DNA of 39,414 nt from an uncultured Alistipes sp. Its GTDB lineage: Bacteria; Bacteroidota; Bacteroidia; Bacteroidales; Rikenellaceae. The stretch spans positions 1-39,414 of the forward strand of contig CAZVGH010000002.1 of the NCBI GenBank assembly GCA_964626515.1. The letters run 5' to 3'. The notes beneath the pieces were generated by a model that was not told where the DNA came from, ran no database searches, and saw only the letters and a program-made list of their open reading frames with translations. Shown here in pieces: positions 2,911 through 24,970 of the stretch (position 1 is the first letter of the stretch; each line of letters begins with the position of its first letter). A program made the position numbers and the translations under genes.

Positions 2911-3140
2911 AAATAAAAAGGGGCGCGGTGTCAGCCTCTGCATGTAGGTCTTGGGAACCCGAATCCGGCAGCTGTCCTGCGCCCTTGTTTGTTCCGCCCT
3001 TTGTGAGCGGAACATAACAAGGACCGACAACTATTATACCCAGATTAAACAACCTCCGTGCGGAGGGTCCCAAGTTTACATGCAGATATAAAGAGTTGCT
3101 TACCCTTTATGATATAGCTCGTCGACCGGCGATCGACGAC
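2911..3140 (-). ncRNA. Structured leader/antisense-attenuator RNA, copy 1 (C4/CI-like architecture)
   Basis: Lies downstream of -7 box 3146-3153; hairpins 3119-3139, 3088-3110, 2983-3022; blocks 3068-3086 complementary to 2937-2956; closing stem GGGCGC/GCGCCC plus U-tract. G-U pairs favour the minus strand. Confidence 0.65.
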
Positions 3141-3145
3141 GATTG

Positions 3146-3153
3146 CAAAGATA
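3146..3153 (-). promoter_or_regulatory. -7 promoter element upstream of structured RNA copy 1
   Basis: TATCTTTG on the minus strand in an AT-rich patch. Confidence 0.55.
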
Positions 3154-3564
3154 AGATAAATTTTTGCATCCGCCGCGCCCCGCTGCAAAAAATATGGAGG
3201 CGCTCCGTTGCTTTTTCCGCTTGCGCGGCGTGCGGACTGCGGTATGCGGCAGTCCGCTGCGACGACTGCCGGCTTGCGTGTCGGTTGCCGCGGGAAGGCG
3301 AAGACCCGTTTGTCGGATTTGTCGCAGGAGCGGCGGCAGCGGAGCCGGCTTTTGGACTGCGGGCAGCAGCAGTCCCGCGGCTGAGGCCCGCCGCTTCAGG
3401 TAGTGTCGTCGTACATTTTCCGCAGACTGTGCTCTGCGGGCATACGGCCGAAAACGACGGCGCCATGCGTTCGGTCGGGCAGCGGGGAAGGAAGCGGGCA
3501 GGAGAGAACGGGGCAGGATGCGGGCAAGAGAACGAGGCATGACAGCTGCTCCCGGTTCCTCCGT

Positions 3565-3602
3565 AAAAACAAGACGGGACATGTCTGTTGACATGCCCCG
3601 TC
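3565..3602 (-). terminator. Intrinsic terminator of rplU-rpmA
   Basis: Minus strand GACGGGGCATGTC-AACA-GACATGTCCCGTC followed by TTGTTTTT. Confidence 0.75.
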
Positions 3603-3623
3603 GGATTCGTGTGTCGCAAGCGC

Positions 3624-3884
3624 TTACTCGCTCAGCGGCATAACGCTTACATAGGACTTGTTCTCGCCCTTCTTGCAGAACGAAACCGTTCCGTCTACGA
3701 GCGCAAACAGCGTATGGTCTTTGCCCATACCTACATTCTCACCGGCGTTGTGTACCGTACCGCGCTGACGAACGATGATGTTGCCCGCCTTGGCGAACTG
3801 GCCGCCGAACAGTTTGATGCCGAGTCGCTTGCTTTCCGACTCACGGCCGTTCTTCGAACTACCTACACCTTTCTTGTGTGCCAT
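3624..3884 (-). CDS. rpmA: 50S ribosomal protein L27
   Basis: [22 protein letters not shown]...IIVRQRGT. Confidence 0.98.
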
Positions 3885-3906
3885 TGTGCTACTTCGTTTT
3901 TAAGGG

Positions 3907-4218
3907 TTACGCAACGATTTCCTCCACGAGAATCTGGGTCAGATACTGACGGTGACCGTTGCACTTCTGATAGCCCGTTCTGCGCTTCTTCTTGAAGACC
4001 AGGACCTTGTCGTCCTTCAGGTGCTTCAGGATCTTGCACTTTACTGCGGCGCCTTCTACTACAGGTGCGCCGACTTTAACCTGACCGTCGTTGTCTGCAA
4101 GCAGGACTTTGTCGAAGCTCACGGACGAATCAACTTCGCCCTGAAGACGGTGTACATAGAGCTTCCGACCCTTTTCAGCTTTGAATTGCTGACCTGCGAT
4201 TTCTACGATAACGTACAT
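3907..4218 (-). CDS. rplU: 50S ribosomal protein L21
   Basis: [13 protein letters not shown]...[10 protein letters not shown]...GHRQ. Confidence 0.98.
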
Positions 4219-4259
4219 TGAATTGCAATAGTTAGTGTTCGAAACACATTTTTGGTCTG

Positions 4260-4291
4260 CAAATGTACGCCCTTTTTATCGGATAAACAAA
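4260..4291 (-). promoter_or_regulatory. Primary-sigma promoter of rplU
   Basis: TTTG (4291-4288), 20-nt spacer, TACATTTG (4267-4260). Confidence 0.75.
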
Positions 4292-4457
4292 TATTCCGCA
4301 ACTTTTTTTCGCCGTGCCGCCCGCAACCTTTTCCGCCTGCCCTTTGTCCGCCTTTCCGTCCGCCTTTGGCGATCTGCGTGCGGCCCGCTCCGCCGTTCGG
4401 GGCCGCGTCGGGACCGGCGTGCGCGGGAGTGTGCCGCAAAGAGGCTCGCAGCGGGTT

Positions 4458-4474
4458 TTGGCACGGTTTTGGGC
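4458..4474 (+). promoter_or_regulatory. Possible sigma-54 (-24/-12) promoter
   Basis: TTGGCACGGTTTTGGGC: good -24 TGGCACG, imperfect -12; about 35 nt before ATG 4510. Confidence 0.4.
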
Positions 4475-4509
4475 AGTTGCTCCGTTCCGTGTGAAAAGCG
4501 TCAGCCCTC

Positions 4510-4881
4510 ATGAACTCCGTACCGCGCATATTGATCTTCTCGTCGGACGACCTGCTCGCCGAACTGGTCTGCACGTCGCTGACGGGGCTCGAGGCGGAGA
4601 TCCGGATCGTCTCGGACCTCGAGAGCTTCGAACGCCTCACCGCCCGCCAGCTCTTCGATCTGGTGATCGCCCTCGAGGTCTGGCCCTTCTGCTGCGGCGC
4701 CGAGGTGCTGCGGCGGCTGCGCCCCGAGCGGCTGCGGCGTCCCGCGATTTACGTCGTCTCGTGGCAGCAGAGCGAACAGACGGTCCTCGGCCTGCTCGAG
4801 TGCGGCGTGGACCAGTACATGACCTTCCCGCTCAATCTGATGCGCCTGCGCGGCAAGGTGATCGGCGCCCTGAACCGATGA
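4510..4881 (+). CDS. Stand-alone atypical (pseudo-)receiver domain protein
   Basis: CheY-like layout (RILIF, FDLVI, GAEVLRRLR, GVDQYMTFP) lacking the phosphoacceptor Asp and conserved Lys. Confidence 0.7.
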   Translation: MNSVPRILIFSSDDLLAELVCTSLTGLEAEIRIVSDLESFERLTARQLFDLVIALEVWPFCCGAEVLRRLRPERLRRPAIYVVSWQQSEQTVLGLLECGVDQYMTFPLNLMRLRGKVIGALNR

Positions 4882-5822
4882 TCCGTCTCCTTTATATATC
4901 CTATGCTGCGCTGCTCGGCGCTGCGGCCGTTCTGCTCGCCGTGCGGATTTGCGGCACGGCGCTCGGCCGCCGGCGCGGCCAGCGCGAGCGGCTGCTGTGC
5001 CGCTATGCGGTCCGTCAGATCGTCTCGGCCCAGCTGTCCGACGCTCCCTCGACGGTGTTGCTGCCGCTGCGGCGGATCGTCGGACGGCGGCGCCGCCTCT
5101 GCGAACTGCTCTCCGAGCTGGCGGCCGCCACCTACGGCCTCGACACCGCTCCCGTGCGGCAGATCGTGCGGAGTTACGGATTGGAGCGGTGGCTGTTGCG
5201 GCGCATCCGCTTCAGCCGCGGCTGCCGCCGCGCCCGCTATCTGAAATGGCTCTCCGATCTGCCTGTCGGCGAGGAGGCGGCCCGTGCCGCCGCCCGCTGC
5301 CTCGCCGATCCGTGCCGGGAGGTGCGTTTTTGCGCTCTGCTCGTGCAGATCGTCGCCGATCCGCAGCAGGTGCTGCGGACGATCGCCGGTTTCGATCCCC
5401 CGCTGACCGACGGCGAGACGGCAGAGGTGCTCCATTTGCTGCGGCGCGGCCTGCTGCCGATCGCCTATCAGCCGCTGCTCGAGTCCGACAACGGCAACCT
5501 GCGCCGCCTCGGGCTGGCCATCGTCGAGCGTTTCGGCATCGAGGAGGCGGAGTCGACCCTGCTGCGGATCGTCGGCGGGGCGGATGCCGCCTGCGCGCAG
5601 GCGGCCCTGCGGGCCCTCGTGTCGATGCACCGTTCGCTGCGCCACCGCGAGGTGACGGCCTGCGTGCGCCGCATGAACGTCGCCGAACGCCGCTCGCTGC
5701 TGCGGATGCTGGCCCGCGAGGGGTATGCGGTCCCCTCGGTGCGGCACCTCTGCGCCGCGGACGAGGAGGCCCGCTACGAGGCGCTTGTCGGATCCTATAA
5801 ACGGCAGCTGGCATGGTCGTGA
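4878..5822 (+). CDS. Membrane-anchored HEAT-repeat-like protein
   Basis: ATG overlaps upstream TGA; N-terminal TM; repeats such as LADPCREVRFCALL and LLESDNGNLRRLGLAIV. Confidence 0.65.
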   Translation: MIRLLYISYAALLGAAAVLLAVRICGTALGRRRGQRERLLCRYAVRQIVSAQLSDAPSTVLLPLRRIVGRRRRLCELLSELAAATYGLDTAPVRQIVRSYGLERWLLRRIRFSRGCRRARYLKWLSDLPVGEEAARAAARCLADPCREVRFCALLVQIVADPQQVLRTIAGFDPPLTDGETAEVLHLLRRGLLPIAYQPLLESDNGNLRRLGLAIVERFGIEEAESTLLRIVGGADAACAQAALRALVSMHRSLRHREVTACVRRMNVAERRSLLRMLAREGYAVPSVRHLCAADEEARYEALVGSYKRQLAWS

Positions 5823-6643
5823 CAGGGGTGTTGCTGGCGGTCGCGGCGGCGGTCGCCCTGGGATGGACGCTGCGCTCGGAACGCGCCTTCGCCCGCCGCC
5901 GCCTGCTGCTTTCGATGCACGGCGCGCGGGCCGATGCGGTCGGCGGCATCGGCCTCTCGGTGTTGCTCCCCGAGGGGGTGACGCCGCGGCTGGCGGAGGA
6001 GCTGCTGTCGACCGAATACGCGCTCTTCGAGGTGGTCGCCGTGGTCGACGGCCTCTCCGATCCCGCGCTGCTGGCGCAGCTCGCGGCCCGCTACCGCCTC
6101 TTTCGGGTGAGTGCACCGCCCGCCGACGGCACGCGGGCGCTCTACCGCTCGCGCAAGCGCCGCTTCCGCCGCTTCGTGCTGCTCGACCGTCCCGCGACGG
6201 ACCGAAGACGTGCCTGCCGCGCCGCCGCTGAAGCGGCGACCTACGACTATCTGCTGCCCCTGCGGCCGAACGAGCGGCTCACCTGCGGCGCTGTCGAACG
6301 CGTGGTCTGCGAGCTGGCGGCCGCCTCCGGGACCGCCGTGCTGCGGTCGCTGTCGGGGGCGCGGGGGCGGGTATTCTGTCGGGCGGCCTTCGGGGCGGCC
6401 TGCCGCGGCAAACGGTCGGGGCGGCTGCTGCGGCCGTGCCGGACCCTCTGCGATCCGATCACCGTGCGGCGGCGTCCGCCGCGGGCGCTGCGTCGTGCGG
6501 GGTGGGCGGCCGCCGCGGTGACGGCAGCCGCCGGTGCCGCCGCTGCGCCTGCGTGGTGGGTCGCCGTCGCATGGGTGCTCACGCTGCTGGTCGTGCTGCT
6601 CGCCGCGGTGCGGATCGGACAGCTGCGCCGCACCTGCGGATAG
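5813..6643 (+). CDS. Degenerate glycosyltransferase family 2-like membrane protein
   Basis: GLSVLLP, LLSTEYALFEVVAVVDG, RALYRSR...FVLLDR resemble a GT2 N-terminal half; no DXD or QxxRW; N- and C-terminal TM segments. Confidence 0.6.
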   Translation: MVVTGVLLAVAAAVALGWTLRSERAFARRRLLLSMHGARADAVGGIGLSVLLPEGVTPRLAEELLSTEYALFEVVAVVDGLSDPALLAQLAARYRLFRVSAPPADGTRALYRSRKRRFRRFVLLDRPATDRRRACRAAAEAATYDYLLPLRPNERLTCGAVERVVCELAAASGTAVLRSLSGARGRVFCRAAFGAACRGKRSGRLLRPCRTLCDPITVRRRPPRALRRAGWAAAAVTAAAGAAAAPAWWVAVAWVLTLLVVLLAAVRIGQLRRTCG

Positions 6644-6727
6644 CGGGGCGGATTTTGTAAAATAAACGCGGAAAAACGGTGGAATATTTATAAATTTTGT
6701 TATCTTTACAGCACGATACCCGAAAAA

Positions 6728-7603
6728 ATGAACGCTTCCAACCATTTCGACGCGGAACTCGAAACGAGTATCCGATCCATCCTGCTGCCTGCCATGTTCA
6801 ATGCGGCGGTGCGGGCGGGAGCCGCCATCATGCAGGTGCACGGCCGTCGCGAGGATTACGACATCGGGCTGCGGAACGACCGCACCCCCATCACGCTGGC
6901 CGACCGCATGGCTCACCGCACGATCCGCGAGGCGCTCGGTTCGACCCGCATCCCGATCCTGAGCGAGGAGGGGCGCGAGATGCGCTACGACGAGCGCCGC
7001 AACTGGGAACTCTACTGGCTGGTCGACCCGCTGGACGGCACGGCCGAGTTTATCGACGGTTACAACGAGTTCACGGTCAACATCGCCCTCATGTCGCACA
7101 ACACCTGCGTCGGGGCGGTGATCTACGTTCCCTATTTCGAGAAGATGTACGTCGCGGGGCGGGGCTTCGGCGCCGCGCTGCGCGAGCATGTGCCCCCCGC
7201 GGCTGATGCGGCTTATACCTTCGAGGAGCTGCGGGCCGACTGGCGCCCCCTGCCGCTGACGGACGAAGTGCCGCACGAGGGGCTGCGCGTCGCCGTCTCG
7301 CGCCTGCACTGCACGCCCGAGACCGAGGCGCACATCGCGCGGCTGCGGGCTGCGCATCCCGATCTGGAGATCGTCGAGCAGGGCAGCTCGTACAAGTTCT
7401 GCATGCTGGCCGAGGGGACGGTCGACTACTACGTCCGCACGTCGCAGACCTACGAATGGGATACGGCGGCCGGCGAGCTGATCCTCGCCGAGGCGGGAGG
7501 CCGCACGCGGCTGCTCGGAGAGGACCGGGAGCTGTGCTACAACGAGGAGGATCTGCGGAATCCGTGGTTCGTCTGTCGTTCGAAGTTCTGCCCTGTCGAA
7601 TAA
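6728..7603 (+). CDS. cysQ: 3'(2'),5'-bisphosphate nucleotidase CysQ
   Basis: PITLAD, LSEE, WLVDPLDGTAEF, GSSYKFC, WDTAAG motifs. Confidence 0.9.
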   Translation: MNASNHFDAELETSIRSILLPAMFNAAVRAGAAIMQVHGRREDYDIGLRNDRTPITLADRMAHRTIREALGSTRIPILSEEGREMRYDERRNWELYWLVDPLDGTAEFIDGYNEFTVNIALMSHNTCVGAVIYVPYFEKMYVAGRGFGAALREHVPPAADAAYTFEELRADWRPLPLTDEVPHEGLRVAVSRLHCTPETEAHIARLRAAHPDLEIVEQGSSYKFCMLAEGTVDYYVRTSQTYEWDTAAGELILAEAGGRTRLLGEDRELCYNEEDLRNPWFVCRSKFCPVE

Positions 7604-7643
7604 GCGCGCCTTTTCGTAAATAAAAAGTTCACATACCCGAGAG

Positions 7644-7675
7644 AGGGCGCCCGACGGATCGAAGTCGGGCGTCTT
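7644..7675. terminator. Hairpin between convergent genes, probable terminator
   Basis: AGGGCGCCCGAC / GTCGGGCGTCTT stem. Confidence 0.5.
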
Positions 7676-7766
7676 CGCTTGGGGTGTACGGACGAGGGGG
7701 CGGGAAAGCGGATGCGGGACGCGGTTTGCCCGGCTGCCGCTGCCGAAGCGGCGTCGGGCGGCGCGC

Positions 7767-8033
7767 CTACTCCCGGTTCGACGGAATGTCGCAGGCGCCG
7801 CAGTTGCCCGAGCAGCCCGCGAGGGGCGAGGCGCTCTCCGAGCAGGAGGCCGTGCCGTCGGCCTCGCGCGTCTCCTGCACGGCGCACTTGATGCCGAGGC
7901 GCTGCATCTCCTTGTTGGTCGAGATTTCGGAGTCGATGTGGTGCCCCTTGATGAGGAGCGTCAGCGAAAGACCGACGACGAAGAAGCCGACGGCGGCGAC
8001 GGAGATGAGAATGACAAGCAGCCAGTTCGGCAT
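7767..8033 (-). CDS. Small membrane protein with Cys-rich C-terminus
   Basis: N-terminal TM; C-terminal CSGNCGAC; consensus promoter just upstream. Confidence 0.7.
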   Translation of the reverse strand: MPNWLLVILISVAAVGFFVVGLSLTLLIKGHHIDSEISTNKEMQRLGIKCAVQETREADGTASCSESASPLAGCSGNCGACDIPSNRE

Positions 8034-8060
8034 GGTTCGGCGGTTTTTTGAAGAATAAAA

Positions 8061-8108
8061 TTTGGGCTTTCGACCGCAAATTTATATATTTGTCGATTAA
8101 AATGCAAA
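8061..8108. promoter_or_regulatory. Overlapping divergent promoter pair
   Basis: Plus: TTTG 8061-8064, N20, TATATTTG 8085-8092. Minus: TTTG 8108-8105, N20, TAAATTTG 8084-8077. Confidence 0.75.
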
Positions 8109-8209
8109 CCTCGTTCCGCGCCGGTCGGAAAGGGCCGCGCGACGTGCAAAAAAGGCGCTGCGACGGCCGGCGGCTGCGCGGACGGGTTGCGTAAACTTCG
8201 ATACAGACC

Positions 8210-9547
8210 ATGAAAATCGTGATTGCGGGTGCCGGCGAGATGGGCAGTCACCTGGCGAAAATGTTGAGCGGCAACGGCCACGACATCACCGTCATCGACG
8301 GCGATCAGAAACTTCTTGCCGAGGTCTCGAGCCTGGCCGACGTCATCACCGTCGAGGGCGACTCGACCACCTTCGCCGTGCTGCGGCGCGCCGCCGTGCG
8401 CCGCTGCGACCTCTTCATCGCCGTGAACCACGAGGAGAACGACAACCTGGTGGCGGCGATTCTGGCCAAGAAGCTCGGCGCCAAGAAGTCGATCGCGCGC
8501 ATCGACAACAACGAGTACCTCGAGCCCAACAACAAGGAGCACTTCATCGACATGGGTATCGACTACCTCTTCTATCCCGAGAAGATCGCCGCGCGCGAGG
8601 TCATCAACCTGCTGGGCCACACCGCGACGACCGAGTACGTCGATTTCTCGGGCGGCAAACTCTCGCTGGCGGTCTTCCGCCTCGAGCCGTCGTCGCCGCT
8701 CATCGGCCGTTCGCCGCTCGGTCTCGACGGCGCGGAGCAGCCCGCCTACCGCACGGTGGCCCTCACGCGCGACGGACAGACGATCATCCCGACGGCCGAC
8801 GAATGCTTCTCGGAAGGCGACACGGCCTATATCATCGCGCGGCAGGATGCCGTGGCGGCGGTCATGGAGTTCTCGGGCCGCTCGAACATCGAGGTGAAGA
8901 ACATGATGATCCTCGGCGGCTCGCGCATCGGCATCCGCATCGCGACCGAGCTGCAGGAGGAGATGAACATCAAGCTCATCGACTACAACGGCGAGAAGGC
9001 CTACCGGCTGGCCGAGCGGCTCGACAAGACGCTCATCATCAACGAGGACGGCCGCAATACGGAGGCGATGCTCGAGGAGGGCCTTTCGAACATGGACGCC
9101 TTCGTGGCCGTGACGGGCCGCAGCGAGACGAACATCCTTACGGCGATGCTCGCCAAGCGGATGGGGGTCAAGAAGGTGATCGCCGAGGTCGAGAACCTGA
9201 ACTACATCCACCTGGCCGACTCGGTCGGCATCAATACGATCATCAACAAGAAGCTCGTCACGGCGTCGAACATCTTCCGCTTCACGATGTCGACCGACGT
9301 GCAGGCGATCAAGTGCCTCACGGGCAGCGATGCCGAGGTGCTGGAGTTCATCGTCAAGCCCAACTCGCCCGCCACGAAGGCGCGCATCCGCGACCTCGGC
9401 CTGCCGGCCGACGTGATCGTGGGCGGCATCGTACGCGGCGACAAGGTCTTCATCGCCGTGGGCAACACCGAGATCCGTCCCTACGACCGCGTAGTGGTCT
9501 TCTCGATGCCGGCTTCGGTGGGCAAGGTGGGACGTTTCTTCAATTAG
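8210..9547 (+). CDS. trkA: Trk potassium uptake NAD-binding protein TrkA
   Basis: Two RCK_N/RCK_C pairs; MKIVIAGAGEMG and ILGGSRIG. Confidence 0.95.
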   Translation: MKIVIAGAGEMGSHLAKMLSGNGHDITVIDGDQKLLAEVSSLADVITVEGDSTTFAVLRRAAVRRCDLFIAVNHEENDNLVAAILAKKLGAKKSIARIDNNEYLEPNNKEHFIDMGIDYLFYPEKIAAREVINLLGHTATTEYVDFSGGKLSLAVFRLEPSSPLIGRSPLGLDGAEQPAYRTVALTRDGQTIIPTADECFSEGDTAYIIARQDAVAAVMEFSGRSNIEVKNMMILGGSRIGIRIATELQEEMNIKLIDYNGEKAYRLAERLDKTLIINEDGRNTEAMLEEGLSNMDAFVAVTGRSETNILTAMLAKRMGVKKVIAEVENLNYIHLADSVGINTIINKKLVTASNIFRFTMSTDVQAIKCLTGSDAEVLEFIVKPNSPATKARIRDLGLPADVIVGGIVRGDKVFIAVGNTEIRPYDRVVVFSMPASVGKVGRFFN

Positions 9548-9558
9548 CCGATCACGCC

Positions 9559-11088: not shown

Positions 11089-11702
11089 CAATCGCCGGAA
11101 ATATCGGCAGCGGCAAGACGACGCTGACGCAGATGCTGACGGAGCGATACGGCGCCAAGGCCTATCTCGAGAATATCGACAACCCCTACATCGGCGATTT
11201 CTACGAAGATATGAACCGTTGGTCGTTCAATCTCCAGATCCGCTTCTTGGCCAGCCGCATCGACCAGACGATGGAGATGCTCGCCGACAAGAACCAGCAC
11301 ATGATCATCCAGGACCGCACGATCTACGAGGACGCCTACATCTTCGCGGGAAACCTCCACGAAATGGGGCTCATGTCGTCGCGCGACATCGACACCTACA
11401 TGCGCATCTTCCGTCTGGTGACGCATCTCGTGCCGAAACCCGATCTGCTGATCTACCTCCGCGCCTCGGTGCCGACGCTCATCTCGCAGATCCGCAAGCG
11501 CGGCCGCGACTACGAGATGAACATCGACGAAGCCTACCTCGGCCGTCTGAACGACAAGTACAACCGCTGGATGGATTCGATCTACGAGGGGCCCGTGCTG
11601 ACCGTCGACAAGGACCGCGAGGACTTCGTGGCCGATCCGGAGGTCTTCGAGCGCATCTGCGCCGAACTCGACAAGCGGGATATTCAGAAGCGCCTGTTCT
11701 GA
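11079..11702 (+). CDS. Deoxynucleoside kinase
   Basis: IAIAGNIGSGKTT P-loop, DRTIYED, PDLLIYL, IRKRGRDYE lid. Confidence 0.93.
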   Translation: MYIAIAGNIGSGKTTLTQMLTERYGAKAYLENIDNPYIGDFYEDMNRWSFNLQIRFLASRIDQTMEMLADKNQHMIIQDRTIYEDAYIFAGNLHEMGLMSSRDIDTYMRIFRLVTHLVPKPDLLIYLRASVPTLISQIRKRGRDYEMNIDEAYLGRLNDKYNRWMDSIYEGPVLTVDKDREDFVADPEVFERICAELDKRDIQKRLF

Positions 11703-17403: not shown

Positions 17404-17492
17404 AACCGGTGAACGGGGCGGCGAAGGGCCGGTGGCGGAACCGCAGCGCTTTCGGCGCCCTCCGAACGAAAACAGACAAAGGAGCACGAACG

Positions 17493-17912
17493 ATGGCGGT
17501 GGAGATATTCCATAGCGGTACGGTGGACCGGGTCGAGGGCACGACGGTGCGGGTGCGCATCCTGTCGAAGAGCGCCTGCGGCTCGTGTGCCGCGCGGACG
17601 GCCTGCGGACTGGCCGAGGCGACCGACAAACTGATCGACGTCGTGACGCCCGAAGCCGGCCGTTATGCGGTCGGCGATGCGGTGACGGTCGGCGTGCGGC
17701 GCAACCTCGGGCTGCGGGCCGTGGCGCTCGGCTACGTCGGTGCGCTGGCGGTGCTGCTCGCGGCGCTTGTCGTGACGGTCGGCGTGCTGGGCTGGAGCGA
17801 GGGCGCGGGAGCTGCGGCGACGTTCGGAGCCGTGGCGCTCTACTATGTTATATTATGGCTCTTCAGAGAGCGGATAGCACATACAATTCAATTTACAATA
17901 ACAAAAAACTAA
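17493..17912 (+). CDS. rseC: RseC/MucC-family membrane protein
   Basis: SACGSCAARTAC motif and two C-terminal TMs; TAATG coupling to rnfB. Confidence 0.85.
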   Translation: MAVEIFHSGTVDRVEGTTVRVRILSKSACGSCAARTACGLAEATDKLIDVVTPEAGRYAVGDAVTVGVRRNLGLRAVALGYVGALAVLLAALVVTVGVLGWSEGAGAAATFGAVALYYVILWLFRERIAHTIQFTITKN

Positions 17913-18976
17913 TGGAAGTATTACTTTACACGATCCTGACACTGTGTGTGTTGGGTGTGCTCGCGGCGGTCATTCTCTACTTCGTGGCCCAAAAGTTCAA
18001 GGTAGAGGAGGATCCGCGGATCGACTGCGTGGAGAAGATGCTGCCCGGAGCCAATTGCGGCGGTTGCGGTTTTGCCGGCTGCCGCGGTATGGCCGAGGCG
18101 CTCGTGAAGCGGGATGACATCTCGGCATTGTTCTGCCCCGTGGGCGGCGGCGATACGATGAAGGCCGTAGCCGGCTATCTGGGCAAGGCTGCGGCGGAGA
18201 AGGAGCCGCAGGTGGCCACGGTCCGCTGCGGCGGTACCTGCGCGAAGCGTCCCCGCACGAACCGCTACGACGGCGCTTCGTCGTGCGCCGTTGCGGCTTC
18301 GCTCTATGCGGGCGAGACGGGCTGCTCGTTCGGCTGTATCGGTTACGGCGACTGCGTGACGGTCTGCGCCTTCGGTGCCATCTCGGTCAACCCCGAGACG
18401 GGTATTCCCGAGGTCGACGCCGACAAGTGTACGGCGTGCGGCGCCTGCGTGAAGGCCTGCCCGAAGAAGGTCATCGAGCTGCGCAAGAAGTTCCCCAAGA
18501 ACCGCGCCGTCTACGTCTCCTGCGTCTCGCACGACAAGGGCGCTGCGGTGATGAAGGCCTGCAAGGCGGGCTGCATCGGCTGCGGCAAGTGCGCCAAGAC
18601 CTGCCCCTTCGGTGCCATCATGGTGGAGGGCAACCTGGCCTACATCGACCCCGCGAAGTGCAAGCTCTGCCGCAAGTGCGTGAACGAGTGCCCGACGGGT
18701 GCCATCAAGCTCGTCGGCATGGATCCGCTGCCTAAGGCTCCGAAGGCAGCTCCCGCGGCTCCCGCCGCAGCCAAGGCCGCTCCGGCCGCCGCTGCCGCGA
18801 AGAGCGAGGGCCCGCAGCTCGTCGAGCTGAAGGAGGCCGCGAAGAATCCGCTGACGCTGCTCAACCCGCGCAAGACGGTGGCTGCCGCTCCGAAAGCCGC
18901 CGCTGCCGCCGAGGCGCGCACGCTCGTGCCGCTCAAGGAGGCTGCGCTGCGTCCGCTCCGCCTGCTGAAGCACTAA
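17912..18976 (+). CDS. rnfB: Rnf complex subunit B
   Basis: N-terminal TM, LPGANCGGCGFAGC, several CxxCxxCxxxCP ferredoxin motifs. Confidence 0.93.
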   Translation: MEVLLYTILTLCVLGVLAAVILYFVAQKFKVEEDPRIDCVEKMLPGANCGGCGFAGCRGMAEALVKRDDISALFCPVGGGDTMKAVAGYLGKAAAEKEPQVATVRCGGTCAKRPRTNRYDGASSCAVAASLYAGETGCSFGCIGYGDCVTVCAFGAISVNPETGIPEVDADKCTACGACVKACPKKVIELRKKFPKNRAVYVSCVSHDKGAAVMKACKAGCIGCGKCAKTCPFGAIMVEGNLAYIDPAKCKLCRKCVNECPTGAIKLVGMDPLPKAPKAAPAAPAAAKAAPAAAAAKSEGPQLVELKEAAKNPLTLLNPRKTVAAAPKAAAAAEARTLVPLKEAALRPLRLLKH

Positions 18977-19012
18977 ACACGAATCGTCAAACGAGAAGAG
19001 AACAACAACGAT

Positions 19013-20362
19013 ATGAGAACATTTCCAATGGGCGGAGTTCATCCGTCGGAAAATAAGTTGAGCCGTGCGAAGGCGATCGAGGTGCTGCCGCTGCCCGAGG
19101 TGGTGCAGATCCCGCTTGCCCAGCACATCGGCGCACCGGCTACGGCCAAGGTGGCCAAAGGCGACAAGGTGCTGACGGGTCAGCTCATCGCCGAGGCTAC
19201 GGGCTTCATGTCGGCCAACATCCACGCCCCGATCTCGGGTACCGTGCAGTCGGTCGACCTGCAGCCGAACGGTCAGGGCGTGCGCCAGATGATGATCACC
19301 ATCAAGCGCGAGGGCGACGAGTGGGTCGAGACGATCGACCGCTCGGAGGAGCTCAAGAAGGAGTGCACGCTCGAGCCGCAGGCGATCATCGCCAAGATCA
19401 AGGAGGCGGGCATCGTCGGTATGGGCGGTGCCACGTTCCCGACGCAGGTCAAGCTGTCGGTGCCTCCCGGAAAGAAGGCCGAGTGCCTGATTATCAACGG
19501 TGTCGAGTGCGAGCCCTACCTCACCTCCGACCACCGCACGATGCTCGAGCACGGCGAGGAGCTCCTCGTCGGCGTGACGATCCTCATGAAGGCGATCGGC
19601 GTCGAGAAGGCCTACATCGGCATCGAGAACAACAAGCCCGATGCGATCGCCCACCTGCAGCAGCTCGCCGCCGCCTACAAGGGCATCGAGGTGACGCCGC
19701 TCAAGGTGCGCTACCCGCAGGGCGGTGAGAAGCAGCTGATCGCAGCCGTTACGGGCCGTCAGGTGCCTCCTCCGCCGGCTCTGCCGATCGACGTGGGTGC
19801 CGTGGTTTGCAACGCTTCGACGACCTACGCCGTCTACCGTGCCGTGCAGAAAAACATGCCGCTCATCGAGCGCGTGGTGACGATCACCGGCAAGGGGCTG
19901 AAGGAGCCGAAGAACCTCCTGACGCGCATGGGTACCCCGATCACGTCGCTGCTCGAGGCTGCCGGCGGTCTGCCGGAGGATGCGGGCAAGGTCATCAACG
20001 GCGGCCCGATGATGGGTCGTGCGATGGTGAACCTCGAGTCGCCCGTGACGAAGGGCTGCTCGGGCATCACGGTCATGAGCGGCCGCGACGCCGAGCGCAA
20101 GACGGCCGGTCAGTGCATGAAGTGCGCCAAGTGCGTCGAGGCCTGCCCGATGGGTCTGGAGCCCTACTACCTCTCGAAAATGACGCAGAAGAAGAACTGG
20201 GACGAAGTCGAGGCGCAGATGATCACCTCGTGCATCGAGTGCGGCTGCTGCCAGTCGACCTGCCCCGCCTACCTGCCGCTGCTCGACTGGGTACGCCTCG
20301 GTAAGCAGACCACGATGGGCATCATCCGTGCGCGCATGGCTGCCGCAGCTCCTAAAAAGTAA
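19013..20362 (+). CDS. rnfC: Rnf complex subunit C
   Basis: QHIGAP, GIVGMGGATFPT, ECEPYLTSD, GGPMMG, two 4Fe-4S motifs. Confidence 0.96.
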   Translation: MRTFPMGGVHPSENKLSRAKAIEVLPLPEVVQIPLAQHIGAPATAKVAKGDKVLTGQLIAEATGFMSANIHAPISGTVQSVDLQPNGQGVRQMMITIKREGDEWVETIDRSEELKKECTLEPQAIIAKIKEAGIVGMGGATFPTQVKLSVPPGKKAECLIINGVECEPYLTSDHRTMLEHGEELLVGVTILMKAIGVEKAYIGIENNKPDAIAHLQQLAAAYKGIEVTPLKVRYPQGGEKQLIAAVTGRQVPPPPALPIDVGAVVCNASTTYAVYRAVQKNMPLIERVVTITGKGLKEPKNLLTRMGTPITSLLEAAGGLPEDAGKVINGGPMMGRAMVNLESPVTKGCSGITVMSGRDAERKTAGQCMKCAKCVEACPMGLEPYYLSKMTQKKNWDEVEAQMITSCIECGCCQSTCPAYLPLLDWVRLGKQTTMGIIRARMAAAAPKK

Positions 20363-20383
20363 CAGAAAAACAGCAAGATAATT

Positions 20384-21349
20384 ATGGCAAACAAACTTAT
20401 TGTCTCGCCGTCACCCCATGTGCAGTCGACGCAGTCCACGGCCTCGATCATGCGCGATGTCGTCATCGCGCTCATCCCGGCGCTGGTCGTTTCGACGGTG
20501 GTGTTCGGTGCGAGCGTACTCGCCGTGACGGCCCTTTCGGTGGTCGCCTGCGTTCTGTTCGAGTACCTGATTCAGCGCTTCCTGGTGAAGGGCCCCTGCA
20601 CGATCTGCAACTGGTCGGCAGCCGTTACGGGCGTCCTGCTCGCCTTCAACCTCCCCGCGTCGATTCCGTGGTGGATCGTCGTGATCGGCGCCTTCGTGGC
20701 GATCGCCGTGGCCAAGATGACCTTCGGCGGTCTGGGCAAGAACCCCTTCAACCCCGCGCTGGTGGGTCGTGTCTTCCTGCTGATCGCCTATCCCGTGCAG
20801 ATGACCTCGTTCCCCGCGCCGCAGAGCGGTGCGCTTGACGCTCTGTCGGGTGCTACGCCGCTGGCTGCCGTGAAGCACGGCGTCGAGGCCGGTGTGCTGC
20901 CGATGCAGGACCTGCTGCTGGGTAACATGCCCGGTTCGCTCGGCGAGGTGGCTTCGCTGGCGCTCCTGCTCGGCTTCGTCTACCTGCTGTGGCGCAAGGT
21001 GATCTCGTGGCACATTCCCGTGACGGTGCTCGTTACGATGGCGCTCTTCGCCTTCGTCGTGGCGCTGTCGCGCGGCGGTGACGCCTCGATGCTGTGGCAG
21101 TTCCCGCTCTTCCACGTGCTGGCCGGCGGTGCGCTGCTCGGTTCGATCTTCATGGCTACGGACTACGCGACCTCGCCGATGACGGTCAAGGGTGCCGTGA
21201 TCTACGCCGCAGGTATCGGTGCGATCACGATGTGCATCCGCCTCTGGGGTGCCTATCCCGAGGGTATGTCGTTCGCGATCCTCATCATGAACTCCGTCAC
21301 GCCGCTTCTGAACAAGTATATCAAACCCAAGCGCTTCGGCGTCAAATAA
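20384..21349 (+). CDS. rnfD: Rnf complex subunit D
   Basis: SPSPH, FGGLGKNPFNPA, SGATPL, FMATD. Confidence 0.96.
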   Translation: MANKLIVSPSPHVQSTQSTASIMRDVVIALIPALVVSTVVFGASVLAVTALSVVACVLFEYLIQRFLVKGPCTICNWSAAVTGVLLAFNLPASIPWWIVVIGAFVAIAVAKMTFGGLGKNPFNPALVGRVFLLIAYPVQMTSFPAPQSGALDALSGATPLAAVKHGVEAGVLPMQDLLLGNMPGSLGEVASLALLLGFVYLLWRKVISWHIPVTVLVTMALFAFVVALSRGGDASMLWQFPLFHVLAGGALLGSIFMATDYATSPMTVKGAVIYAAGIGAITMCIRLWGAYPEGMSFAILIMNSVTPLLNKYIKPKRFGVK

Positions 21350-21361
21350 CGGTAGAGAGAG

Positions 21362-22027
21362 ATGAAAAGTACACTTATCAATATGGTGGCGGTGCTCTTC
21401 ACGATCACGCTCATCGCATCGGCCGGTGTCGGTGTCGTGAACATGATTACCGAGCAGCCGATCGCCGATGCGAAGGCCGCTGCGACGCAGCAGGCTTTGA
21501 GCGAGGTCCTGCCCGCCTTCGAGCAGACCTCGATCGAGGAACTGGAGATCGACGGCCTGCAGATCAAGGTCTACACGGCTACGAAGGGCGAGGCGCTCGC
21601 CGGTTATGCCGTCGAGACGCAGACCAAGCAGGGCTTCAACGGCGTAGTAAAACTCATGGTGGGCTTCCTGCCCGACGGTACGGTGACGAACGTCAACGTG
21701 CTCGAGCAGGCCGAGACGCCGGGTCTGGGTTCGAAGATGACCGAGGAGGGCAACCCCCTGCTGAAGTCGATCCGCAACTGCAAACTCGAGGAGAAGAAGC
21801 TCGTGAACGGCCGGCTGGCCGTTACGAAGGACGGCGGCGACGTTGATGCCCTGACCGCCGCGACGATCTCGTCGCGTGCCTATGTCGACGCGGTCAACCG
21901 TGCCTGGACGGCCATGACGAGCGTTCGCGACAACAAGCAGCCGGCGGATGCCGCTTCGGGCGCTACGGCAGCAACTACGGTACAAACAGAGGAGCCTGCG
22001 GCTCGGGAAGGAGAGAGCAATGAATAA
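21362..22027 (+). CDS. rnfG: Rnf complex subunit G
   Basis: ETPGLG, DALTAATISS. Confidence 0.94.
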   Translation: MKSTLINMVAVLFTITLIASAGVGVVNMITEQPIADAKAAATQQALSEVLPAFEQTSIEELEIDGLQIKVYTATKGEALAGYAVETQTKQGFNGVVKLMVGFLPDGTVTNVNVLEQAETPGLGSKMTEEGNPLLKSIRNCKLEEKKLVNGRLAVTKDGGDVDALTAATISSRAYVDAVNRAWTAMTSVRDNKQPADAASGATAATTVQTEEPAAREGESNE

Positions 22028-22604
22028 GCTGCAAATCATTACGAGTGGTATTCTGAAAAACAACCCGACCTTCGTGCTGGTGCTGGGTATGTGCCCGACG
22101 CTGGGTACGACCACCTCGGCTTCGAACGGTATGGGTATGGGTCTGGCCACGATGGCCGTGCTGATTATGTCGAACCTGGTGATCTCGCTCATCAAGAACC
22201 TGATCCCCGACAAGGTGCGCATTCCGGCCTTCATCGTCGTCATCGCATCGTTCGTGACGATCATCCAGATGCTCATGCAGGCCTTCGTGCCGGCGCTCTA
22301 CGCTTCGCTGGGTGTCTTCATCCCGCTGATCGTGGTGAACTGCATCATTCTGGGTCGCGCCGAGGCCTTCGCCTCGAAGAACGGCGCCTTCGATTCGATC
22401 CTCGACGGTATCGGCATCGGCTTGGGCTTCACGCTCTCGCTGACGGTGATCGGTGCCGTGCGCGAGATTCTCGGCAGCGGTGCCGTATTCGGTGTGTCGC
22501 TCGGTACGGCGGATGTGATGCCGCTCGTCTTCGTGCTGGCACCGGGCGGCTTCCTCACGCTGGGCTACCTCATGGTATTGTTTAACAAATTAGCCAAGAA
22601 ATAG
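22020..22604 (+). CDS. rnfE: Rnf complex subunit E
   Basis: [31 protein letters not shown]. Confidence 0.95.
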
Positions 22605-22606
22605 TC

Positions 22607-23185
22607 ATGGAGATTTCCTACTTTGCAATCATTATCGGTGCCATCTTCGTCAATAACGTCGTTCTGGCCCAGTTCCTCGGCATCTGCCCCTTCCTGGGCG
22701 TGTCGTCGAAAGTGGAGACCTCGCTCGGCATGAGCGCCGCCGTGACCTTCGTCATGGCGCTGACGGCTCTCGTCTGCTGGCCGCTGCAGACGTTTGTCCT
22801 CAATCCGCTCAACATCGGCTACATGCAGACGATCGTCTTCATCCTAGTGATCGCCGCGCTGGTGCAGATGGTCGAGATCATTCTTAAGAAGGTTTCGCCC
22901 GCGCTCTACCAGGCGCTCGGTATCTTCCTGCCGCTGATCACGACCAACTGCGCCGTGCTGGGTGTGGCCATTCTGATGATCCAGAAGGAGTTCACGCTGC
23001 TTCAGAGCGTTACTTACTCGGTGTCGACGGCGCTCGGCTTCGGCCTTGCGCTGGTGCTCTTCGCCGGTTTGCGCGAGCGCCTCGATTTCGAGGATGTTCC
23101 TGCCGCTTTCAAAGGGGTGCCCATCGCACTCATAACGGCCGGCATTTTGGCCATGGCCTTTATGGGATTTTCGGGTCTGGTATAA
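22607..23185 (+). CDS. rnfA: Rnf complex subunit A
   Basis: [28 protein letters not shown]. Confidence 0.96.
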
Positions 23186-23209
23186 GCCCGAAACACCCCT
23201 TTTTGCCGC

Positions 23210-23245
23210 ACCGCCTGTCCCGAATTTCGGGGCGGGCGGTTTTTT
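23210..23245 (+). terminator. Intrinsic terminator of the rnf operon
   Basis: ACCGCCTGTCCCGAA / TTCGGGGCGGGCGGT stem followed by a T-tract. Confidence 0.85.
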
Positions 23246-23335
23246 GTTTCGGTTGCGGACGATAAATGGGTAACTGCGTATGATAAGTACGATGCTCGGG
23301 CACTGTTTGTAGTCGTGAACCTGCGAGTTTGTCGC

Positions 23336-23371
23336 AAAAAAAGCCCGCTCTGCATTATGCGGAGCGGGCTT
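23336..23371 (-). terminator. Intrinsic terminator of the beta-barrel gene
   Basis: AAGCCCGCTCCGCAT / ATGCAGAGCGGGCTT stem plus T-tract on the minus strand. Confidence 0.85.
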
Positions 23372-23407
23372 GAATACGGAGGTATGATCGCCGGGCCTCC
23401 GTTCCGG

Positions 23408-23956
23408 TTAGAACTTTAGACCGACCTTTACGAAGAACGAGTTGATGGCATAGCTGCCGTTCGTTGCCTGATGCTGGCAGCCGAGACCGAAGTTGAGCTT
23501 GCCGTAGTTCAGACCGACGCCATACGAAGCATACAGACCGCCGTCAGCATCGCCTGTGATGAAAGGCGAGTAACCCAAGTCGATGCTCACATAGGGGGCG
23601 AATTTCTCGCTGACGGGGTAGTAGCCCTTCATGTCTACGAATACCGGCAGCGTGATATCCTTCCACTCGTGTGCATATTGAACGCCGATACCCAGACCGA
23701 CGAAGGCGTACTTCGTGATGCGTACACCGTGAATCGTCTCGGCGAAGACACGACCGAAGTCTGCCGAATGGCCGTCTACCGTACCGTTGAGGCCATAGCC
23801 GACATTCACTTCGCCCTGATACCAGATATTCACCTCCCGGGTCTTGGTCTGGTAGGTCTTTTCGTGGTTGATGTTCGTGACCGTCATCTTCTGTGCGAAC
23901 GACGTGGCCGGAGCGACCATCATGGCCGCTACCAGCAAAAGAAAGAATTTCTTCAT
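23408..23956 (-). CDS. Small outer-membrane beta-barrel protein
   Basis: Signal peptide ending SFA-Q; alternating aromatic/Gly strands; C-terminal FVKVGLKF. Confidence 0.8.
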   Translation of the reverse strand: MKKFFLLLVAAMMVAPATSFAQKMTVTNINHEKTYQTKTREVNIWYQGEVNVGYGLNGTVDGHSADFGRVFAETIHGVRITKYAFVGLGIGVQYAHEWKDITLPVFVDMKGYYPVSEKFAPYVSIDLGYSPFITGDADGGLYASYGVGLNYGKLNFGLGCQHQATNGSYAINSFFVKVGLKF

Positions 23957-24015
23957 GTTTGTAAAATAATTAAAGGTTATAAAAAAGGGTTAAAAAAGGT
24001 TTGCTGTTGTCCGTG

Positions 24016-24684
24016 TCAGTCTTTTGCGCCGATGCGTTTTGCGCTGTCCTCCGTTAACTGGGCGTTGACATTCGAGTTCGAAAGCGTTCCCTGCAGGTAA
24101 AGATCCTTGATCCAGCGGTCTTTCTCCGTGCCGGTTCGGAAGCCCGTGTAACGGGCGGGAAAGCCCGTCATTTCGACTTGCATGACGTATTTGCCGTTGC
24201 GCTCGCACGGCACCTCGGTCGAAGTGACACCGCCCGCATCGTCGGTCACCTGTACCATTTCGAGTTTGTGTGTGATCTTGAACTGCGGCATGACGATCAG
24301 ATCGGCCTGCTCCTGGGTACAGAAATCGTAGATGGCCGAGGCCTTCAGCTGGGTGTAGAGGACGTCGAGTACGACATTGAAATTGATACCTTTGACATTC
24401 TCGATCTTGCTCATGAGGTATTCTCCCGTGAACTTGCGATTTTCGAATGTGGTCGTCGTGCCGCTGTTCCGGCCGATTACCTCGACTTTGGCGATGAGCG
24501 GCTCGATGAGCATCTCGTGCTTGGATTCGAGGGCCGTCGCCTCGGTTCGTTCGTAGGTGGCCTGTATATCGGCCAGTCGGGTGGTGGTGATGGTTTTTGC
24601 CGTGCTGCGCTGGGCATACGCGGCGTTGCTGCCTGCAACGATGGCGGCGGCAGTCAGTAGTAGGGAAATACACAATTTCTTCAT
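24016..24684 (-). CDS. Secreted hypothetical protein
   Basis: Signal peptide ending AYA-Q; natural composition; co-oriented with the barrel gene. Confidence 0.75.
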   Translation of the reverse strand: MKKLCISLLLTAAAIVAGSNAAYAQRSTAKTITTTRLADIQATYERTEATALESKHEMLIEPLIAKVEVIGRNSGTTTTFENRKFTGEYLMSKIENVKGINFNVVLDVLYTQLKASAIYDFCTQEQADLIVMPQFKITHKLEMVQVTDDAGGVTSTEVPCERNGKYVMQVEMTGFPARYTGFRTGTEKDRWIKDLYLQGTLSNSNVNAQLTEDSAKRIGAKD

Positions 24685-24728
24685 AACGAGAAATTCGGGT
24701 GCACCCTCGGCTCCTATGATGCGGTGTG

Positions 24729-24958
24729 AAAAAAAGAAAGTGTGGAGTCGATTCGTTTATCTGACGAGAGGCTCCGGTAAGCCCGAAAACAAATAAACAA
24801 TACCCCACACTTGTAAGGCAGCGAAATGCGAATCGCATGCCGATACAAGTGATGAGTGCGTCGTTTTCCTTGTTTTCTCGAAATTTACCGGATTTCTCGT
24901 CAAGGATAAAAGCGAAACACTTTCATCGAATATGTCTTGACTGTCTTCACAGACAGCC
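24729..24958 (-). ncRNA. Structured leader/antisense-attenuator RNA, copy 2
   Basis: Lies downstream of -7 box 24963-24970; hairpins 24939-24958 (GUGA tetraloop), 24905-24927, 24808-24851; blocks 24885-24902 complementary to 24762-24780; terminator stem plus U-tract 45 nt before ATG 24684. Confidence 0.7.
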
Positions 24959-24962
24959 GCGA

Positions 24963-24970
24963 CAAAGATA
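24963..24970 (-). promoter_or_regulatory. -7 promoter element upstream of structured RNA copy 2
   Basis: TATCTTTG on the minus strand. Confidence 0.6.

Follow-up and report, generated by a model that had tools for sequence, protein, structure and literature searches.

Both minus-strand elements of the window, by which we mean the whole 39,414-nt stretch of uncultured Alistipes sp. DNA analysed here, are members of an extensive, unnamed leader-RNA family of the Bacteroidota whose codes are private to each copy and covary fully, as the earlier note on this DNA had proposed. Each copy carries an upstream code and a matching anti-code in its 3′ hairpin, and we lean towards reading the family as self-addressed transcription attenuators, in which a copy's own 3′ hairpin would act in trans on transcripts of the same copy. 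A covariance-model search against Rfam returned no match in the window (E ≤ 1), nor in 20 member loci.

Layout of the two window elements

The seven features that had been described for each element, from promoter box to U-tract, were all located at their expected places on the minus strand (Table 1), and the span 2911–24970, presented earlier as one feature, is actually two separate elements of ~230 nt. Putative transcription starts are placed near 3141 in element 1 and near 24958 in element 2. The 5′ hairpin of element 1 is variable among members and the shortest members compared have none. The 8-bp stem (H1) is present, with an alternative state overlooked before: its 5′ strand can pair instead with the U-tract and the 3′ arm of the terminator, a helix that covaries in alignment A1 (helix 1). 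In element 1 this strand is the predicted antiterminator partner; when element 2 is folded to minimum energy, strand 24924–24917 takes that place.

Block 1 of element 1 pairs with anti-block 1 (2946–2937) at 10/10 bases and block 2 with the apical loop (2956–2950) at 7/7; the corresponding pairings of element 2 (24769–24762 and 24780–24773) comprise 8/8 bases each. The code was originally taken to have two blocks and has three. A UUCG preceding GGY, once thought conserved, is present in just 6 of 126 members; in the window elements it is part of the third variable block and pairs with the third upstream block. In its predicted fold the 3′ module of element 1 displays all three anti-blocks, the second of them in the apical loop, a module call based on model R2, which had the element 1 copy in its training set. 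Folding z-scores against 200 shuffles were −6.2 for element 1 and −8.5 for element 2.

Table 1. Features of the two elements and their neighbouring genes
Element	Feature	Position	Strand	Basis
1	−7 box (TAnnTTTG, Bacteroidota promoter)	3146..3153	-	sequence
1	5′ hairpin	3119..3140	-	folding
1	hairpin H1, 8-bp stem 3110-3103/3095-3088, 7-nt loop	3088..3110	-	folding
1	code block 1, hypervariable target	3077..3086	-	subfamily variation, pairing
1	AA linker	between block 1 (ends 3077) and block 2 (begins 3074)	-	sequence
1	code block 2, semi-variable target, 3′ of AA linker	3068..3074	-	pairing
1	code block 3, hypervariable; pairs 3047-3040/2968-2962	3040..3047	-	alignment A4, family test
1	inner (antiterminator) hairpin, sequesters terminator 5′ arm	2979..3024	-	folding
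1	anti-code hairpin	2959-2947	-	sequence
1	3′ module: predicted terminator hairpin and U-tract (to 2911)	2911..2986	-	model R2, folding
1	next gene, P0001, 143 aa	2167..2598	-	open reading frame
2	−7 promoter box	24963..24970	-	sequence
2	5′ hairpin	24941..24956	-	folding
2	conserved ACAUA motif	24931..24935	-	family conservation
2	hairpin H1, 8-bp stem 24927-24920/24912-24905	24905..24927	-	folding, alignment A1 helix 1
2	code block 1	24895..24902	-	pairing
2	code block 2	24885..24892	-	pairing
2	code block 3; pairs 24880-24871/24791-24784	24871..24880	-	folding, family test
2	inner (antiterminator) hairpin	24802..24858	-	folding
2	anti-code hairpin	24783-24770	-	sequence
2	3′ module: predicted terminator hairpin, displayed anti-code, U-tract 24739-24729	24729..24812	-	folding, model R2
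2	cargo P0002, 222 aa, signal-peptide-like start	24016..24684	-	
2	likely second cargo gene, 182 aa, signal-peptide-like start, then terminator	23408..23956	-	

Directly behind element 1 there is no clear gene. The next one, P0001, has its own −7 box near 2670, and its link to element 1 is uncertain; it may be repressor-like, and it had no match in Pfam, NCBIfam, PHROGs or PADLOC. Behind element 2, P0002 matched no protein family and the 182-aa protein had no Pfam match. Four of six P0002 homologs within the genus also have an element upstream, three of these four with a different code.

Extent of the family and its codes

A genome-wide two-block scan gave 25 matches, six of them with the AA linker; since five of these six are family members (the other is a look-alike variant), the pairing in the elements is not due to chance. 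Homologs retain the complementarity, as had been anticipated: in a set found from the 3′ part alone, 22 of 26 copies (one a training copy) have the matching upstream code against 4 of 650 swapped controls, and in a second such set 105 of 115 against 2 of 568. At least 8 copies are present in the source genome and 17 in one complete relative, and members also occur on prophage/ICE contigs and in Fibrobacter. Among 126 elements there are 101 distinct code combinations; 108 have a −7 box 45–200 nt upstream of the code (2/126 background windows) and 95 have ACAUA at −50 to −30 (1/126 background windows), a motif whose role is unexplained. Own-genome targets of the code were found exactly once in 7/7 cases tested.

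All 16 code pairs covary, being 97–100% paired, in an alignment of 21 rows that had been selected for pairing. G-U pairs make up 1.5–2.7% of block 1 and 0.1–0.5% of block 2, compared with 14–18% of other stems, and this scarcity fits a fidelity-limited address. Block 1 divergence in the element 1 subfamily is 0.54, against 0.56 for the unpaired flank and 0.20 for a single-partner stem, which block 1 exceeds in 108 of 120 pairs (kin, hence not independent). The code is thus almost purely Watson-Crick and diverges at the pace of unpaired DNA. Because block 3 lies in a cis stem, the fact that it pairs within the copy does not independently point to a role in trans. Orthogonality by code avoidance did not emerge: of 329 within-genome pairs one has identical codes, compared with 24 among 5131 pairs from different genomes (p = 1.0), and for close scaffolds a shared code in 1/12 versus 13/37 (p = 0.14) gives no significant within-genome avoidance. 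One genome carries two copies with one code (L078/L080), and near-identical same-code copies stand before different genes in different genomes (L085/L096, L160/L092, L084/L129).

Most copies directly precede an intact gene and move together with it. Signal-like starts occur in 76 of 114 cargo proteins versus 108 of 331 in a crude background, and most cargo is predicted to be surface or secreted proteins and lipoproteins. Contrary to the earlier supposition, the family is not restricted to chromosomal non-phage genes: 21 elements were parsed from viral contigs, some adjoining tail-fibre, integrase, recombinase or resolvase genes, with one (L119) right after an integrase. A Pfam scan of 109 cargo proteins found no antirepressor gene.

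For B. thetaiotaomicron members, published dRNA-seq tables show the ~230-nt terminated RNAs expected from the −7 box: BTnc169, BTnc235, BTnc262 and BTnc140 are annotated there as RNAs from promoter to U-tract (PMC7366714). The printed sequences of the first three contain code and anti-code and that of BTnc140 the anti-code module. BTnc169 (235 nt) and BTnc262 (319 nt) both end at the U-tract; the BTnc169 start lies 5 nt past a TAnnTTTG-type −7 box and is common to BT_3039, as the BTnc235 start is to BT_4141 (PMC7366714). One weak antisense start is recorded beside BTnc169, and the annotation gives BTnc163 as a 5′ part of 102 nt with high coverage. Members in this table begin at transcription starts, with no cleavage end or processed module listed. 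Two leader-gene pairs were compared across nine expression sheets, and in a single sheet the leader departs from its gene: BTnc235 changes by +3.2 log2 while BT_4141 changes by −0.55, probably under gentamicin (condition inferred from the legend). The sRNAs of the duplication cluster BTnc235/169/262/163/166/198/047/042/006, for which 11 sites are recorded as similar, are family members; the published tables present them only as intergenic or antisense sRNAs and duplications, without structure, code or function.

Predicted folds, mechanism and alternatives

Two mutually exclusive conserved folds are predicted before the gene: a rod, in which the code is paired in cis and the terminator concealed, and an intrinsic terminator hairpin showing the anti-code in loops. 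In 25/25 cases the free 3′ module gave a hairpin without branches, containing apical as well as internal loops, the anti-code being exposed with an unpaired probability of up to 0.99 in the loop. A terminator was predicted for 1 of 123 free leaders, for 57 with blocks 1 and 2 covered and for 97 with all three covered, against 0/123 for an upstream control. With blocks 1 and 2 covered and the full 5′ end kept, the window elements failed to switch (0.01 and 0.10), and when leaders were co-folded with their cognate module at equilibrium, the terminator formed in 23/123, neither window element among them. Opening the code costs a predicted median of 16 kcal/mol, so the full-length RNA is expected to refold as an inert rod. 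The B. thetaiotaomicron RNAs end at the U-tract despite this read-through default, and therefore something overrides it.

The mechanism we favour, with somewhat better than even confidence, builds on the −7 box, code, anti-code and U-tract and on the B. thetaiotaomicron RNAs spanning promoter to U-tract. A lone nascent transcript would form the rod, hide the terminator arms and be read through into the cargo. The 3′ ~85 nt, folding alone, would form the terminator hairpin, whose 8-nt apical loop presents anti-block 2 and whose internal loop presents anti-blocks 1 and 3. Processing may free this module from its 5′ partner, letting it accumulate, meet a cognate leader still being transcribed, kiss block 2 and then pair with blocks 1 and 3; the rod would then be blocked and the terminator would form. 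The net effect would be a burst of cargo upon entry of a copy into a naive cell and a low level afterwards, shielded from differences in promoter strength and copy number, different codes keeping the many copies of one cell independent.

A switch between terminator and antiterminator acting only in cis, with the code as a drifting long-range stem and an ACAUA-binding protein, polymerase speed or pausing, the ribosome or temperature as reader, is unlikely, for all that it accords with two conserved exclusive folds, the retention of ACAUA, exclusively full-length annotated RNAs, the divergence of BTnc235 from BT_4141 and the lack of within-genome code avoidance. A drifting stem ought to allow G-U pairs and evolve slowly, and the code does neither; the fixed AA/RCC geometry and the loop-presenting GGY-RCC stem would be superfluous in cis. 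Nor is a leader peptide general, as a leader-peptide attenuator with its conserved short reading frame over the switch would need: just 26/126 members have an ATG no more than 50 nt from the code. A trans effect of opposite sign, in which the long RNA is remodelled, and cargo expression raised, by the short RNA or by a liberated 5′ fragment or sponge bearing the target blocks, has a precedent in IsrK, which ends at a terminator and acts on the longer RNA that reads through it (PMC4825925), and would suit the high-coverage 5′ part BTnc163. Covering the target blocks promotes the terminator in folding, however, and the cargo starts 40–60 nt past the terminator, with no complementarity to that start found, which leaves this reading decidedly improbable.

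We regard as very improbable that the chromosomal anti-code RNAs are primarily a decoy library silencing incoming same-code prophages and ICEs, the cargo link being secondary. Such a role was proposed for Acinetobacter C4-like RNAs (PMC5320573) and would fit the members on viral contigs, including the one following an integrase, and the same-code copies across genomes; against it stand the intact, signal-rich genes that travel with most copies, the unique own-genome targets and a PADLOC match in just 1 of 28 proteins tested (radical SAM). Barely plausible is a hairpin working as DNA, whether as an attC-like cassette site or as a single-strand promoter, or else a mobile repeat in decay, in either case devoid of RNA function. 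The strict Watson-Crick code, the long imperfect palindrome and the joint relocation of element and gene would agree with it, but the oriented promoter, the U-tract, strand-specific G-U pairs in other stems, the two exclusive folds and B. thetaiotaomicron RNAs with matching ends in the published tables do not.

If self-addressed attenuation holds, it would supply a structure and a testable mechanism for hundreds of elements across a dominant gut phylum and for a dozen B. thetaiotaomicron sRNAs that lack an explanation; horizontally acquired surface lipoproteins would be dosed without a protein regulator, phage-immunity RNA logic would extend to ordinary accessory genes, and re-codable terminator switches would be ready for Bacteroides engineering. 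We tentatively speculate that RNA feedback switches that need no protein, are orthogonal to one another and number in the hundreds may form a natural library in Bacteroidota, with lock and key in each ~230-nt cassette; a newly acquired surface-protein gene would then bring a pulse-then-buffer circuit with it, and at least 17 such circuits would run in parallel per cell. Codes would be under diversifying selection, and where codes collide, a gene on an incoming prophage or ICE would be silenced by the resident copy.

Comparison with known systems

The predicted pair of exclusive folds upstream of a gene, one an intrinsic terminator, matches a transcription attenuator, as does the short RNA from the gene's promoter to the U-tract in B. 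thetaiotaomicron (PMC7366714). Like the paralogous FopS and GibS, the B. thetaiotaomicron members are multi-copy Bacteroides sRNAs. FopS represses PUL mRNAs through a common single-stranded seed and has a terminator (PMC11697453); unlike its shared R1 seed in the 5′ part, the code here differs in each copy and pairs internally. The Gifsy-1 locus of IsrK yields this terminated short RNA together with a longer one, on which IsrK works in trans (PMC4825925); it activates translation, whereas the new family is predicted to terminate, its antisense part being 3′ and within the terminator.

Antisense RNAs of pT181 and pIP501 bind the nascent leader and favour its terminator, with loop-initiated, re-codable specificity, and are made from their own promoter on the opposite strand. 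In the new family target and anti-code lie on one strand.

The C4 RNAs of P1/P7 use a variable loop and an adjacent single strand, few changes yielding non-cross-reacting pairs, and Acinetobacter baumannii carries several C4-like copies in one genome (PMC5320573). The new family shares the multi-copy habit and a variable single-stranded code matching an upstream target of the same transcript. It differs from C4 (RF01695, c4-2) in its three blocks, in matching no Rfam model in the window or the 20 member loci searched, in an unbranched hairpin without the P2 tetraloop stem or three-stem a′/b′ loop layout drawn for C4 (PMC5320573), and in having neither an a2-b2 target at the ribosome site nor, among the 109 cargo proteins scanned in Pfam, an antirepressor. 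Release by RNase P is a further C4 trait; the B. thetaiotaomicron tables give transcription starts as the 5′ ends of members. P4 CI confers immunity by triggering premature termination as a processed antisense RNA pairing in trans with seqA/seqC targets, antisense module and upstream target being on one transcript, as here (PMC4825925). The C4/CI likeness suggested earlier holds in its logic and fails for a second, seqC-like downstream target: only the upstream target was found, an own-code target within 600 nt downstream occurring in 1 of 126 members (6/126 for a random other code). Unlike P4 CI, the family has many copies per genome and mainly secreted or lipoprotein cargo rather than replication genes, and its antisense module doubles as the intrinsic terminator hairpin. 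Relative to P4 CI and C4, the trans-acting self-attenuator that we favour would thus differ in having one target and in carrying an intrinsic terminator within the antisense module.

Anatomy and codes of the leader RNA family

The seven-part layout that the earlier note described for both minus-strand elements was found in each of them, and they fold with z-scores of −6.2 (element 1) and −8.5 (element 2) against shuffled sequences. Across the family the order is promoter box, optional 5′ hairpin, ACAUA, the 8-bp hairpin H1, block 1, an R-AA linker, blocks 2 and 3, an inner hairpin whose length varies and the 3′ module, which itself runs terminator 5′ arm, anti-block 3, GGY, anti-block 2, RCCU, anti-block 1, terminator 3′ arm and U-tract. 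The promoter box is present in 108 of 126 members versus 2 in the background, and ACAUA in 95 of 126 versus 1. ACAUA lies 35-46 nt upstream of the linker; it coincides with the start site in the shortest members, and longer ones have it 3′ of a hairpin.

A two-block code had been proposed: blocks 1 and 2 stand, but there is also a third, which forms 5 or more consecutive pairs with its own anti-block in 121/126 members versus 119/630 swapped combinations, and this block 3 belongs to the cis stem. UUCG, previously listed as a shared feature, is part of block 3 and occurs in only 6/126 members.

Complementarity between code and anti-code was scored in two sets of matches found without any upstream information. 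For R2, a model of the 3′ module only, 22 of 26 matches had 13 or more code bases matched upstream (one of the 26 being a training copy), and the swapped control returned 4/650, all four from two near-identical copy pairs. Among 3′-module pattern matches with enough flank, 105 of 115 reached at least 13 of 14, two reached 12 and eight had 11 or fewer (swapped control 2/568); three of the four named low scorers are outside Bacteroidota. In a pooled set partly selected for pairing, 123/131 score 13 or 14; of 167 profile matches 140 could be parsed, 2 more were entered manually, and 10 with a weak U-tract and 1 truncated copy were removed. The claim of private, covarying codes was borne out: in alignment A3, whose rows were chosen for pairing, both partners vary in each of the 16 code pairs, and 97-100% of cells are paired. 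There are 101 code combinations among 126 elements, block 1 having six positions with at most 0.27 bits and block 2 a restricted repertoire of 33. Evidence for the structure and covariation of the family is strong.

Distribution and genomic setting

In the own genome, 1.79 Mb at 76% completeness, complementarity scanning and model searches gave eight copies: two in the window and one each on contigs C24, C36, C75, C124, C128 and C142, the last cut by the contig end. The seven that could be read carry seven different codes. A look-alike on C163 (locus L004) has the AA linker and a CGG bulge, lacks the GGY-RCC stem, folds as a rod and is not matched by R2; it is possibly a sister family.

As a DNA query, one copy found matches in 25 of 61 genomes, the own genome included. 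With 150 candidates scored in each, two complete genomes from the genus yielded at least 19 and at least 7 copies by R2. R1, the model of the rod (code paired in cis, terminator hidden), matched at least 18 of 150 genomes from across the phylum, with 20 candidates scored in each. A 3′-module-only pattern returned 119 loci in 10 of 64 parts of a named genome collection, or an estimated ~840 stretches. High-scoring named records include Bacteroides, Parabacteroides, Prevotella, Alistipes, Rikenella, Flavobacterium, Chryseobacterium, Tenacibaculum and Fibrobacter, along with two Firmicutes-labelled assemblies that may be misbinned. Three loci (L196, L257, L275) with labels including Acutalibacteraceae and Segatella copri have one common code and precede genes of one kind, which suggests misbinning or cross-phylum transfer.

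The pattern search found 19 and 3 loci in viral contigs. By blastn, one member gave one short match among annotated phages and none among annotated plasmids; Bacteroides-type members matched three unannotated phage records and five plasmid-collection records, and nothing in a third search. In viral contigs L119 and L121 (110 and 94 kb), elements that differ in block 1 sit in tandem, each preceding a 70-90-aa ORF, the L119 pair lying immediately 3′ of an integrase gene; this setting is early-gene-like.

The earlier note could not place the RNAs in a named family, and neither window element matches Rfam (two weak chance matches fall elsewhere in the window); 20 member loci likewise gave no Rfam match at E ≤ 1. 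The literature covered by our search holds no description of the family, and the main texts of PMC11109978 and PMC8632094 contain no match to "Bacteroid-". The family is real and large and apparently undescribed so far.

Of 114 genes that come next after an element, 76 have a signal-like start and 43 a lipobox; the corresponding counts for 331 crudely called own-genome genes are 108 and 56, all by heuristics rather than a predictor. Cargo Pfam families include BspA-type repeats, BACON, lipocalin, DUF4988 and outer-membrane barrels, and most of the 109 cargo proteins scanned have no family. Defence cargo was considered and set aside, with 1/28 proteins matching PADLOC and 0/14 matching PHROGs. 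Upstream neighbours are housekeeping genes or genes of mobile elements (resolvase, recombinase, integrase, relaxase and tail fibre). At the site adjoining era, L151 (G009) and L086 (G011) hold different elements, codes and genes.

Element 1 is flanked by rpmA and the gene for the 143-aa protein P0001; its target is uncertain, because no clear gene lies directly 3′ of it. A genus search with P0001, which we take to be repressor-like in look, reached 136 of 300 genomes, every match being weak and N-terminal. The slot after rpmA varies, and among 29 loci (four with little or no downstream sequence) element 1 occupies it only in the own genome; L373 holds another family member there and L358 a reverse-oriented match. 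Element 2 follows a GldF/G-like ABC operon and precedes two genes with signal-peptide-like starts. Its 222-aa cargo P0002 matched only unnamed Bacteroidota clusters in the ESM Atlas; four of six P0002 homologs retain an upstream element, three of these with a different code. An 8-codon ORF stops within block 1 of element 2, whose subfamily has other short ORFs like it; a leader peptide conserved across the family was not found (ATG near the code in 26/126).

Coordinates of the elements and associated features
Feature	Sequence	Position	Strand	Remark
Element 1	window	2911-3153	-	leader RNA
Element 2	window	24729-24970	-	leader RNA
P0001	window	2167-2598	-	own -7 box; no family match
Variable slot downstream of rpmA	window; loci L355-L383 across genus	3160-3620 (window)		
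ACAUA of element 2	window	24931-24935		
8-codon ORF	window	24900-24926	-	
Look-alike	G000:C163	~2870-2990	+	
Tandem elements	L119 (viral contig)	1780-2750		
Tandem elements	L121 (viral contig)	450-1410		

Expression and predicted switching

In the parts of the PMC7366714 supplements covered here, the Bacteroides thetaiotaomicron sRNAs BTnc169 (235 nt) and BTnc235 (238 nt) have TSSs in common with BT_3039 and BT_4141, respectively. The module is visible in the sequences of both, and in those of BTnc262 (319 nt) and BTnc140 (234 nt); a matching code can be seen by eye in BTnc169, BTnc262 and, with one mismatch, BTnc235. BTnc169, BTnc235 and BTnc140 have block 2 in common and differ in block 1. 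The listed 3′ ends of BTnc169 and BTnc262 coincide with the U-tract. The same source tabulates 11 similar sites as duplications, nine with BTnc names, and in the parts covered all named sites begin at a TSS, none has a cleavage end and a terminator is called only for BTnc166. For BTnc163 only the first 102 nt are annotated, with high coverage, and similarity continues for another ~160 nt, which hints that the element is processed internally. In the portion of PMC10294740 covered, the single mention of BTnc140 is as a candidate roc regulator that failed. In nine of the 11 source-data sheets of PMC10994844, leader and gene are mostly flat; in one, probably gentamicin, leaders rise by 3.2 and 1.6 log2 and genes change by −0.55 and +0.24, which weakly supports buffering.

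Folding predicts two mutually exclusive structures. In the rod predicted for the full leader, the terminator 3′ arm is paired with the H1 5′ strand and the 5′ arm is held by the inner hairpin; the module alone is predicted to form the terminator hairpin with the anti-code unpaired. Predicted terminator probability is below 0.2 in 120/123 free leaders and exceeds 0.5 in 52/123 once blocks 1 and 2 are covered (controls 0 and 13), the window elements not switching (0.01 and 0.10). With a shorter 5′ end the terminator is predicted in 1 of 123 free leaders, 57 with blocks 1 and 2 covered, 97 with blocks 1-3, 18 with block 3 alone and none with an upstream control; the window elements then reach 0.85 and 0.86, element 1 with only 7 nt past block 2 covered as its block 3 was mislocated. 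Equilibrium co-folding with the cognate module gives the terminator in only 23/123 leaders, neither window element among them, versus 1 with a non-cognate module, and the attenuator model therefore needs kinetics. Attenuators usually depend on kinetics. On nascent RNA, folding has the cognate module binding better in 78/123.

Candidate mechanism and relation to known systems

We lean towards a trans-acting self-attenuator, whose trans mechanism we infer. By default transcription would read through into the cargo; the 3′ module would be released and could then capture new cognate leaders in a code-specific manner, and the captured leaders would terminate. A switch working only in cis is rather unlikely in our judgement. 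Bearing on whether the code is an address or a plain stem, the G-U share of pairs is 1.5-2.7% in block 1 and 0.1-0.5% in block 2, versus 14-18% in other stems. Element 1's subfamily, present in 49 of 300 genomes searched in the genus and aligned for 16, has an almost fixed scaffold; per-site difference is 0.54 in block 1 and 0.61 in block 3, close to the 0.56 of the unpaired flank and far from the 0.20 of a single-partner stem. Near-identical copies within one genome often carry different codes. Code avoidance within genomes is not significant (same code in 1/329 pairs within versus 24/5131 between genomes; for close scaffolds 1/12 versus 13/37, p = 0.14), which counts against the address reading.

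A trans RNA that activates its target is improbable, and a library of decoys very doubtful. A second target downstream was not found (own code in 1/126), nor were orphan targets in the own genome. That the elements act at the DNA level or are decayed is the least credible account.

The self-attenuator reading would make the family an apparently undescribed variant of antisense-coded attenuation. The leader RNAs differ from FopS and, in the part of the record covered, from IsrK in the predicted sign of effect. The leader RNAs fall outside the P4 CI/C4 group, having no Rfam match, an unbranched fold, no second target and no antirepressor; as far as the covered parts of PMC4825925, PMC5320573, PMC12197685, and PMC2864571 with its supplements go, the likeness to P4 CI and C4 lies in the proposed working logic.
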